Below are positions 15,535 to 17,899 of a DNA stretch of 64,000 bases, in pieces. Below the pieces are notes generated by a model, which saw only the letters and a program-made list of their open reading frames with translations, ran no database searches and was not told the origin of the DNA. The position numbers and the translations under genes are program-made. The DNA is from a virus. The stretch lies in the IMG/VR virus record IMGVR_UViG_3300045988_047070. One strand, given 5' to 3'. Numbering within the stretch: the first letter of the stretch is position 1; each line of letters starts with the position of its first letter.

Positions 15535-17899
15535 CAGTTAAAGATAAAAGCTGTCGGGTCAAACGACTCCTTACCCGTGGTAAGATGAAGGAGAGTGGTA
15601 TTGTAGCTGCACACTTAAAAAGCAATAAGGCAGCGTATGTTTTATTTCGATAAGTCTGATCAACTTATGATATTACGTAGACAAAGAATACAGGATGCCG
15701 TAGGGATAGTATATATTCTCCAATATATACATCGAGCCAAGAGCATGATAACCTATTATGAAGTTTATTCTTTTACTTCTGAAAAGTTAATAGGAAAATG
15801 GGTCAGTGTGCAAAGCCCATAAATCTTGAGAACCGGTTGGTGAAGATTAAAAGACACGATCTAGCGCAGCAGCGACGAAGACAAACATTGCAAGGGGTTA
15901 CTACATAGTAAAGAGATCCTTAAGTAAGATCAAATGAATCCCCTTAAGAATCCGTAGGCACTATCAAGTGCGGTTTCAAGTAAGGACGAAATGTAGTTTA
16001 AAGGCAAACAAGTTCCATCTGTTTGACCTAACTTTAATAGACCGAATAGCGTCCATGACGGGTCCAAACCGTCATTAAACAAATAGCTACCTTTAGTGTT
16101 CCACTCTACAGTTGTTACTATTTTTGTAGTATAGTAATAAGGATCTAGACAACATAACATTTGGCTTAGTTATGGATGAGTGTATGAAGAAAGGGTATTT
16201 AAAATCAAGAAACTGGTAGGATATACTAAAAGCTGAGTGGCTATGGCCCATATATAATAATAGAAGAGGTAACGGACTTCTATAATTACTTATGACAGGT
16301 TATCCGGAGCAGATGCCAAGTCTGTGCTTGCAAGAGCTTATAAAGATGTTCACTAGCGTAGAAAACTAGTTAAAATAGTCTTTATAAGGGGGTACTTCAG
16401 GTGCTGGGTATTAACTACGTAGGAGTGATACTACGTCTTTTAAGATACGCTCTAAAGGATCAGGACAGGTACGATTTTAAATAAAACTGACCGAGTTTTA
16501 TGTTCAATACTAAAATCAGTATAGAGTTATGTCAGTATAAGTCATGGAAACGAACATACGCAGGAGAATAGTGGCGAAAAGACTACCTCAACCCCTAGAG
16601 ACACCGTGGCGAAGTGTATAGGGTTCGTATAAAAAGAGAAACTCACCGCTCTGGTAAACTAAAGGTGTGAGTAAGTTTAGTTTAAGCTTTCTTTAATAGA
16701 TATAACGAAAGTAGGGCTTTTTATAGTCAAGGAGCTAAATTCAAGACTAATAAAATAGTGTAATAGTAAGGGAGTATTAATAGTGCGGCTTACAATATCC
16801 TTTTGTAAGTATAAATGAACCACTTATAGTATTTATTTACTCTGGGAAGGAATTCCTATCACTGGCTCGAGAGTTAACGAGACTCTTAAACAAAAGCGGA
16901 ATTAACATGTCTAACTAACGTAGGTTCAACAACCGAATAACAAATTTGTGGATGTCCTCGCTAGGGAAACTGAATGCGACCACAACTTGGCGAATGCGAT
17001 TGCTTAGTAGTATCAGGGTATAATACGCAATATTATATGTTCGAGAGAAAGCGTCTCATTGAAGCTTGTAAATCTTTAAGAGTGAACGAAAGTGAACTAT
17101 TACTTATAGACCTATTTATAAGCGAGAGTAAATGAGAAGAGGTGAAAGTCCTCGATCTTCATCCAAGTAAAATAAACAAAATCCTAGTCAAGGTTACGTT
17201 GGTAGCTCTGTACTTAGTAATAAGTATATCTAGCGTAAGAGGTAGGCGTTAGTGAATAACTATATGAGACCTATAAGTTATTACAAATAACAAAGACAAA
17301 GATGGCAATTCCTTTGATCGCCTTGCAGTTTTAGCAACGTTCTGTAAAAACGACCGGACATAACTACTTGCCCGATAAGACAGTTTTAATCATTAGTAAA
17401 GTTTATATGAATCTAGATAGGTCAATCTATACTAGTTCTATCCCTAGGATATAGTCTTGCTAACTTATTTACTTTACTATTTTTATCTGAGTAACCAGAA
17501 AAAACGTGTTGATTATTACGGATCTTCTGTAATAGAGATTACAGAATATAGTACAGCTTGGAATCAGAACCTAGAATACTCATCGATGAGTTTCATTAGC
17601 TCTGGTCACAATGCAGTATGCGGTTCCAAAGTAAGATATGACTTAGTAAACTTATAAACCTGTCTCGTTTATAAGGAGTATACCGCAATAGCGAATTATC
17701 AAGAACGGAATTATTTTGCTTATCATATAAATTAAAGTAAAAACATATTTGCATCTTTCCTTGCATAACTTGAATGTTACACGACCGTGGTTTTTAACCT
17801 ATCTGATATAAGATGATGATAAATCGTGACGAAACGCATAGGGAAAGATGTGAGAAAATTTTCATTAATTATTAACTTATCAAAAGGAGGAATTTAAAA
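15535..17899 (+). ncRNA. 2.4-kb ORF-free, helix-rich block (candidate large structured RNA locus; class unknown)
   Basis: No credible ORF is present. Hand translation of 16201-16320 shows TAA, TAG and TGA in all three plus frames. Many local helices and GAAA-type loops are present (see findings). Confidence 0.4.

Follow-up and report, generated by a model that had tools for sequence, protein, structure and literature searches.

A gap in the gene map of a crAss-like phage

We analysed a 64,000-nucleotide (nt) stretch of viral DNA (IMG/VR virus record IMGVR_UViG_3300045988_047070), referred to here as the window, with a focus on positions 15535–17899, a block nearly devoid of open reading frames (ORFs) that an original prediction, made from the letters of the DNA, had proposed to be a large structured RNA locus. 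Between positions 15400 and 18000 the window is 99.4% identical to the uncultured phage cr10_1 (NC_055875), which is classified in Crassvirales, Suoliviridae, Boorivirinae, Canhaevirus, identifying the window as a crAss-like phage. Apart from one 61-amino-acid (aa) 'hypothetical protein' (gp22), the cr10_1 record is empty over the block, which falls there at about 18.9–21.3 kb on the record's reverse strand.

The upstream boundary, placed by translation and alignment, is a 31-aa hydrophobic ORF on the + strand at 15439–15534 (MKAKNSTLDKLAFVGLIIFFIMCLFFAWCIT). The downstream boundary is a + strand gene for a 184-aa protein at 17900–18454, homologues of which anchor the gap in all relatives; in the window lineage this gene has its own ATG and a strong Shine–Dalgarno sequence, AAGGAGG. 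The 184-aa protein has no Pfam, PHROG or PDB match. Farther upstream lies the gene for a 488-aa protein whose homologues occur only in these phages and whose AlphaFold model (predicted local distance difference test score of 65; 70–95 in a C-terminal helical domain) gave no significant fold match in the PDB.

Within the block, the ORF list holds only three ORFs of at least 60 aa, as originally reported, at 15637–15822, 17457–17657 and, antisense, 15930–16160; in other lineages these carry 2–12 in-frame stops. Single-stop recoding does not explain the gap, again in line with the original prediction: with TAG, TGA or TAA reassigned, the longest ORF on either strand is 142 aa. For 16201–16320, where all three stop types had been claimed in all three plus frames, stops do close every plus frame, but all three types occur in one frame only. 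The base composition given earlier for 16561–16620 (30/60 G+C) was exact, and that for 16081–16140 is 17/60 rather than 18/60.

The Crassvirales are noted for recoded stop codons and an abundance of introns (PMC7886860), and 6 kb upstream of the block there is a group I intron; a protein gene that has decayed or been recoded, or one split by a giant ORF-less intron, would not be out of place. Recoding opens no ORF, however, and none of more than 120 relatives has an intact ORF in the gap, so that it is not a decayed gene, as had been suggested as one alternative; substitutions there keep base pairs rather than a reading frame. Nor is it a self-splicing intron, because the upstream ORFs terminate in stop codons and the downstream gene starts with its own strong Shine–Dalgarno sequence and ATG; no group I or group II intron model matched at E ≤ 10. 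Explanations of this kind are effectively refuted.

Conservation of the gap across relatives

Using the 184-aa protein and an alignment of its homologues, we recovered 53 IMG/VR loci, every one of which has a plus-strand ORF-free gap of 2262–2546 nt upstream of the homologous gene (53/53). A second protein alignment, of more distant homologues, yielded 69 further loci, again all with such a gap (69/69; 2080–2269 nt). Throughout the more than 120 related loci examined, the gap measures 1.9–2.5 kb and occupies the same syntenic position, the gene order being sigma factor (ECF-type), ~480 aa, ~130 aa, gap, ~185 aa, ~170 aa, AAA+ ATPase and DNA polymerase. It separates the early/regulatory module from the replication module in the reference genomes of all four named subfamilies: Boorivirinae (cr10_1, cr50_1, cr55_1 and cr1_1; 2.45–2.5 kb), Bearivirinae (cr6_1; 2080 nt), Loutivirinae (cr56_1, cr4_1 and cr53_1; about 2.15 kb) and Uncouvirinae (cr118_1, lineage L332; 1920 nt at 8207–10126, ORF-free, G+C 0.29). 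Across these genomes the identity of the flanking protein drops to ~30%, and gap length stays within ~25%.

An nhmmer profile of the Boorivirinae core matches collinear blocks in Bearivirinae, Loutivirinae and an unclassified lineage, L108, and the gaps of Boori-, Beari- and Loutivirinae are, judged by their sequences, homologous. Motifs common to the homologous lineages are GAGAACCG..UGG; UGACAGRUUAUCCGGA followed by a hairpin with a GCCAA loop; CCAACCGUUA; and NAGG-UGRAARU-CCUN. Scanning metagenomes with the motifs gained almost no additional lineages, and the extra motif matches on viral contigs were mostly chance.

The conservation profile places the constraint between 15535 and ~17215, where conserved blocks are interleaved with indel-rich modules and entire hairpin modules are gained or lost between lineages; the final ~700 nt of the gap is at background conservation, a few short motifs excepted. 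Nucleotide identity of the core (15535–17215) to lineages L031, L032, L039 and L003 is 78, 73, 61 and 56%, against 62–66, 62–67, 43–59 and 48–51% for the four flanking genes. Because its identity exceeds that of all the flanking genes, the core is, on these alignments, the most constrained DNA of the neighbourhood, under purifying selection stronger than that on the adjacent genes.

One tract of the alignment stands apart. Comparing the window with the L039 lineage, the DNA of the 31-aa ORF is 100% identical and that of the adjacent genes only 43–59%, a contrast that suggests a recent recombination tract spanning this ORF and the first ~400 nt of the putative RNA.

Covariation and a conserved RNA structure

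We folded two groups of homologous gaps with RNAalifold: A4, which is Loutivirinae-like (14 sequences, 63–93% identical), and A5, which is Boorivirinae-like (16 sequences including the window). A helix was counted as supported if it had at least 3 base pairs (bp), at least two covarying pairs and at least 90% canonical pairing. On the + strand, A4 gave a consensus energy of −409, with 125 pairs changed on both sides and 25 supported helices, compared with −202 to −234, 17–23 pairs and 0–4 supported helices in eight column shuffles. The corresponding values for A5 were −339, 160 pairs and 24 supported helices, compared with −168 to −185, 47–59 pairs and 0–4 helices in five column shuffles. Since RNAalifold itself seeks covariation, a coding control was needed; 2150 nt of coding sequence from the same loci as A4 gave −276, 69 pairs and 8 supported helices, and the excess over coding DNA is thus about two- to three-fold, not infinite.

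The structures also carried over from one group to the other. When the Loutivirinae-derived structure was placed on the Boorivirinae rows of a joint alignment, 61% of its pairs were canonical, against 36–43% when partners were slid by 1–3 columns; the Boorivirinae-derived structure on Loutivirinae rows gave 68%, against 36–44% for slid partners. In the two directions, 39 and 28 pairs differ on both sides between the groups and are still canonical.

Formal counts were made for two domains and for the whole RNA. The 3′ domain (A6, 16978–17172; 31 sequences from three subfamilies) is 94.1% paired, with 74.7% in shuffles and 29–55% with slid partners, and 20 of its 27 pairs changed on both sides. 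Similarly, the 5′ domain (A8, window positions 15685–15850; 31 sequences) is 95.0% paired (79.4% in shuffles, 33–46% with slid partners), with 16 of 20 pairs changed on both sides. The whole-RNA counts cover the Loutivirinae group (A4) and use a structure taken from the same alignment: its 224 pairs in 40 helices are 97.1% paired, against 39–45% for slid partners, and 72 of the 224 changed on both sides, against 8–13. For each of A4, A6 and A8, 0 of 500 shuffles equalled the real alignment in covariation score and paired fraction. The 3′ domain was also made into a covariance model, R1, which has two branch points and scores 163.6 bits in the window; it is found exactly once per genome, at the expected place, and nowhere else in the 64-kb window. 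In all, compensatory substitutions maintain dozens of helices, and we are highly confident that the conserved RNA structure is real.

Domains and hairpins of the core

The core at 15535–17215, delimited by the conservation profile, by nhmmer across loci and by the 24 well-supported RNAalifold helices of A5, divides into several structured regions, all described here on the + strand. Its first conserved helix, 15534–15538/15550–15554, begins at the stop codon of the 31-aa ORF and has four covarying pairs. The family-wide 5′ domain (15695–15820) comprises helices 15695–15698/15743–15746, 15752–15758/15788–15794 and 15798–15802/15816–15820; in the window lineage its inner hairpin is swapped for a different, AU-rich one (~15708–15730). 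It is followed by a hairpin with the stem AUCUU/AAGAU (15823–15847) that presents the loop GAGAACCG..UGG.G, which is invariant in all subfamilies aligned, on a stem with four covarying pairs in the Boorivirinae group. An invariant loop on a covarying stem recurs in the hairpin AUGACGG-GUCCAAA-CCGUCAU (16055–16075), five of whose seven pairs changed on both sides with 96% canonical pairing.

The central domain (16231–16682) is closed by a long-range helix, 16231–16237/16676–16682, found by RNAalifold on A5 (98% canonical, one covarying pair). Its inner helices are 16239–16248/16298–16305, 16249–16253/16290–16294 and 16486–16498/16525–16536, the last with 11 bp and four covarying pairs. After the motif UGACAGRUUAUCCGGA comes the hairpin GGAGCAGA-UGCCAAG-UCUGUGCU (16306–16328), with 100% canonical pairing and three covarying pairs, which can be made out in all three homologous subfamilies; its Loutivirinae equivalent lies at A4 columns 1097–1113. 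An insertion module at 16340–16475, which includes a hairpin at 16417–16436, is specific to the window, L031 and L032 lineages, has a partial counterpart in L108 and is missing from other Boorivirinae lineages.

Farther 3′, the helix GAGCUA/UGGCUC (16732–16868; 6 bp, two covarying pairs, 99% canonical) surrounds a variable module and is followed by a hairpin, 16870–16873/16883–16886, and the conserved motif UAACAUGUYUAAC. The 3′ domain (16978–17172) is built on P1 (16986–16990/17163–17167) and P1b (16995–17001/17154–17161) and holds an inner hairpin at ~17020–17036, the helix 17064–17073/17114–17123 and a T-loop hairpin. P1 occurs in at least five fully compensated versions (CUUGG/CCAAG, CAAGC/GCUUG, CGUAC/GUACG, ACUGC/GCAGU and ACUAC/GUAGU). 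The T-loop-like hairpin, NAGG-UGRAARU-CCUN (17139–17153), has a loop that fits the U-G-N-R-A T-loop consensus; its GG/CC pairs and loop frame are invariant, and its closing pairs covary (GC, UA, AU; AU to GC).

The five hairpins named in the original prediction all sit where it had placed them. Two of them, at 16055–16075 and 17139–17153, are family-wide with compensatory changes, whereas the one at 15570–15584 is not conserved, relatives favouring CGGGU/ACCCG (15555–15559 with 15573–15577) instead. For those at 16417–16436 and 16641–16672, we read compensatory changes from the alignment by eye, in the lineages that carry these segments. The likeness pointed out earlier between 17139–17153 and a hairpin at 31029–31045 (AGG-TGCAAGT-CCT) holds.

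In the less conserved 3′ part of the gap (17216–17899, + strand), identity to other lineages is no higher than in the coding flanks. Small conserved elements there are UUAGYAACGU..AAACGACC at 17332–17358 and a hairpin at 17588–17593/17598–17602. This part probably holds the 3′ end of the RNA together with the promoter and 5′ untranslated region (UTR) of the next gene. Immediately before the ribosome-binding site of the ~185-aa gene, several lineages have a hairpin of the same shape and different sequence (UCGUUGGUGGAAUCAACCACGAA, CGUAUUGGUAUAUCAAGUACG), located at A5 columns ~3115–3150 in the L039 and L003 lineages and at A4 columns ~2755–2785; the window lineage lacks it.

Strand, ends and unity of the putative RNA

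The alignments moderately favour an RNA that would be read from the + strand, rightward and co-oriented with the flanking genes. The + strand gives the lower consensus energy (−409 versus −367 in A4; −339 versus −297 in A5) and a higher count of supported helices; in pairs common to the predictions for the two strands, G·U outnumbers A·C by 68:34 and 91:73; and all neighbouring genes are on the + strand. In the Loutivirinae, a near-invariant TATAAT lies ~10 nt upstream of the first conserved helix, in one lineage as ATGACA-18-TATAAT. A single sigma-70-like site, matching at 11/12 positions, lies at the 5′ edge in L272 and falls below threshold in L261. We infer that the RNA begins right after the upstream small ORF and that a single long species of about 1.7–2.2 kb is produced, either as a transcript or by processing.

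Two kinds of long-range stem were considered for the ends. A processing stem in the style of ribosomal RNA (rRNA), formed by a 27-nt inverted repeat at 15448–15474/17458–17484, was rejected: the repeat is confined to the window's lineage, and its score hardly exceeds those of shuffles. When 11 lineages were searched by duplex energy for stems joining the two ends, the results equalled those of controls.

Covariation-supported long-range helices close domains of ~130–450 nt. Most supported helices are local or close domains no longer than 450 nt, and those of more than 1 kb are invariant, as would be expected if the gap held an array of several smaller independent RNAs or cis-elements (processed small RNAs, a 3′ UTR stabiliser or a leader of the downstream operon) rather than one giant RNA. 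Whole modules appear and disappear between lineages, several distinct small RNAs lie in the same early region (Hatchet, RAGATH-9, a group I intron and tRNAs) and the thermodynamic z-score is near 0, all of which would fit such an array too. Total gap size, however, is tightly kept (2.1–2.5 kb) despite the variation in modules; the blocks keep a strictly collinear order, and promoter- or terminator-like signals inside the gap do not rise above chance; and no block occurs alone or elsewhere, R1 being single copy in each genome. We regard an array as unlikely and judge the odds to lean slightly towards a single RNA of at least 1.5 kb.

Several observations weigh against reading the block as one large + strand RNA. 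The strand signal is only moderate, and promoter and terminator scans of the window lineage found nothing above chance and no + strand terminator-like site. No variation occurs in the predicted helices that span more than 1 kb; covariation is therefore silent on them, and the unity of the RNA is something that we infer. The coding control, too, shows some apparent covariation in the RNAalifold pipeline. The flanking proteins have no sequence match in Pfam, PHROG or PDB and give no hint of RNA binding. In the Uncouvirinae gap, neither nhmmer, nor motif search, nor the covariance model detected homology, and that gap is either a homologue diverged beyond recognition or a different element. Finally, Suoliviridae have never been cultured (PMC10136315).

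Thermodynamics belongs among these points as well. The block had been called helix-dense, but as a thermodynamic claim this failed: the folding energy of the window sequence on its own does not fall below that of dinucleotide shuffles (z = −0.67 for 15534–16400 and −0.16 for 16401–17215). A coding stretch in the neighbouring 488-aa gene (13700–14550) has z = −5.07, with 0 of 20 shuffles as good, which is unusual for coding DNA. What distinguishes the block is conservation and covariation, not thermodynamic stability.

Known RNA families and a possible origin

No Rfam 15 covariance model matched 15535–17899 at the gathering threshold, and the homologous gaps of six relatives were likewise without a match at that threshold. 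At E ≤ 10, the window block had four weak sub-threshold matches to short unrelated families, which we judged to be chance, and a scan for tRNA and transfer-messenger RNA (tmRNA) found none in the gap. The specific identities put forward originally (group I or II intron, GOLLD, ROOL, HEARO, tmRNA or a known ribozyme) thus found no credible Rfam match and are unsupported; given the absence of Rfam matches, the RNA is not a detectable GOLLD, ROOL, HEARO, OLE, raiA, RNase P, tmRNA, rRNA, intron, ribozyme or RAGATH RNA.

Directly downstream of the block comes the replication module, in which an AAA+ ATPase with DnaC/clamp-loader-like matches is followed by DNA polymerase and helicase. This location would suit a replication origin or another DNA-level site, with the structure belonging to a primer or R-loop transcript, as in ColE1 RNA II or T4 oriF/oriG, or to hairpins of single-stranded DNA. 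The poorly conserved 3′ 700 nt would leave room for a promoter or DNA-unwinding region. We found no iterons or significant repeats, however, only two-copy matches at chance level; the cumulative GC skew is steadily positive through the block, without inflection, and has its extrema near 1 kb and 34 kb of the window; and there is no AT enrichment, G+C being 35.7% in the gap versus a window mean of 33.1%. ColE1 RNA II is about 550 nt long, and 1.7 kb of compensated helices with invariant loops far exceeds what known origin transcripts need. The origin or packaging role raised originally thus finds no positive support; although an origin could lack these features, we consider an origin or similar DNA-level site improbable.

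Other RNAs of the window and its relatives

The early region of the window is unusually rich in RNAs of known families. Rfam identified a Hatchet ribozyme (102.7 bits), a RAGATH-9 RNA, a group I intron and three tRNA-like genes, at window positions 7322–7448, 8302–8480, 9637–9920, and 4395–4473, 10646–10711 and 21161–21228; ARAGORN called only the tRNA at 21161, with an aberrant two-base anticodon. Hairpins resembling T arms lie outside the called tRNAs at 12476 (GGG-TTCGACT-CCC), 30932 (GGG-TTCGAAT-CCC) and 31031 (AGG-TGCAAGT-CCT), and the GGG-TTCGAAT-CCC hairpin is a weak match to a tmRNA 3′ end (E of 5e-4). A second ORF-free stretch, 1463–2587 (1125 nt), has no Rfam match at E ≤ 0.1 and could be another uncharacterised RNA; G+C is ~0.43 in 1001–2000, against the window mean of 0.33. 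In cr50_1 (lineage L002), a RAGATH-22 RNA and a permuted tmRNA (RF04321) lie at 427–593 and 1049–1417, upstream of the sigma-factor gene. The cr10_1 record annotates a tmRNA at the equivalent place (~10048–10433 of the window), which Rfam did not recover in the window at the gathering threshold.

A probable large structured RNA and its possible role

The conserved position and size of the gap, the constraint on its core and the covariation within two clades and across them support the original prediction of a large structured non-coding RNA. In our assessment, the block probably encodes a structured non-coding RNA that is very large, is built of several domains and is specific to Suoliviridae (delta-group crAss-like phages). 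Set against the ornate large non-coding RNA class of Breaker and Weinberg, which is non-coding and longer than ~400 nt, the core is ~1.7 kb long and has no conserved ORF, and it shows covariation, multistem junctions and highly conserved nucleotides. It matched no described family, and we rate it as a new class among the RNAs known descriptively as large, ornate and non-coding.

How such an RNA might work can be sketched only as a proposal. It would be made, speculatively, at the early-to-middle transition of infection, and would act in trans through its tertiary architecture, either as a scaffold for a ribonucleoprotein (RNP) or as a self-assembling 'ornate' RNA like GOLLD or ROOL, with no simple antisense pairing and no role as a DNA site. 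The four syntenic flanking genes, which encode proteins of 488, 129, 184 and 172 aa, would, by conjecture, supply candidate protein partners. We favour an ornate or rRNA-like scaffold over an antisense RNA or DNA site because of the invariant loops on covarying stems, the T-loop, the modular expansions and the domains closed over long range. That the RNA is a trans-acting scaffold or RNP and not a cis-regulatory element is a tentative proposal that falls somewhat short of an even chance. We are about equally guarded on the fullest version, in which the whole region would be one RNA of ~1.7–2.2 kb with rRNA-like complexity, forming an RNA machine or self-assembling particle, possibly with the flanking proteins, at the early-to-middle switch.

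Large structured RNAs are rare, and those that are understood (the ribosome, RNase P, and group I and group II introns) perform sophisticated biochemistry. If the single RNA is real, no larger structured RNA outside the ribosome would be known from bacteria or their viruses; at two to three times the length of GOLLD and ROOL, it would be a prime target for structural biology and for work on infection by crAss-like phages. Three of the four named subfamilies of Suoliviridae, one of the most abundant phage families of the human gut, would carry it at a fixed locus. Annotations would need correction, the stretch being at present empty or filled with spurious 'hypothetical proteins' such as cr10_1 gp22, and the conserved motifs and covariance model could be used to track these phages.

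The locus is not described in the crAss genomics paper (PMC7886860), which remarks only on regions in which no genes could be recognised, chiefly in the Zeta group, nor in the 2023 Crassvirales review (PMC10136315), nor in anything found by full-text literature searches. It is also not in the 2017 catalogue of 224 RNA motifs or the 2023 catalogue of ~10,000 viral RNA motifs of at most 151 nt each.

Comparison with known large RNAs

The transcripts associated with replication origins, ColE1 RNA II and the T4 origin R-loop transcripts, resemble the putative crAss-like RNA in being structured and in lying beside replication functions. They are several-fold smaller, however, and are defined by an RNA–DNA hybrid at the origin, whereas no origin features were detected here.

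Comparable in length are 16S and 23S rRNA, with which the crAss-like RNA has in common invariant single-stranded motifs, covarying helices, lineage-specific expansions and T-loop-type hairpins. Unlike rRNA, it matches no rRNA model, has no conserved processing stem bracketing it and gives no sign of a ribosomal or catalytic function.

GOLLD is likewise a large, multi-domain, covariation-supported non-coding RNA of phages and prophages to which no function has been assigned, and it is modular, with variable and conserved halves (PMC5737381, PMC12286853). It is ~800 nt long, whereas the core here is ~1.7 kb within a gap of 2.1–2.5 kb, and there is no match in sequence or structure. The crAss-like RNA further differs in its presumed Bacteroidales hosts and in not lying beside tRNAs. 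ROOL shares with it an association with gut or rumen, a large structure and a frequent location in phages, but is ~580 nt long, has unrelated conserved motifs and gave no Rfam match in the gap. Both GOLLD and ROOL assemble into RNA-only particles or cages (PMC12286853), the precedent for the self-assembling form proposed above.

OLE, another large ornate RNA, combines an intricate secondary structure with interspersed nucleotides of high conservation and forms an RNP with the products of neighbouring genes (PMC9723947). Although OLE is ~600 nt long, belongs to bacteria (extremophilic Firmicutes) and is not homologous to the crAss-like RNA, we propose by analogy that the syntenic flanking genes here may stand in an OLE-like arrangement, in which the conjectured binding of their proteins would join a large structured RNA to partners encoded on either side of it.

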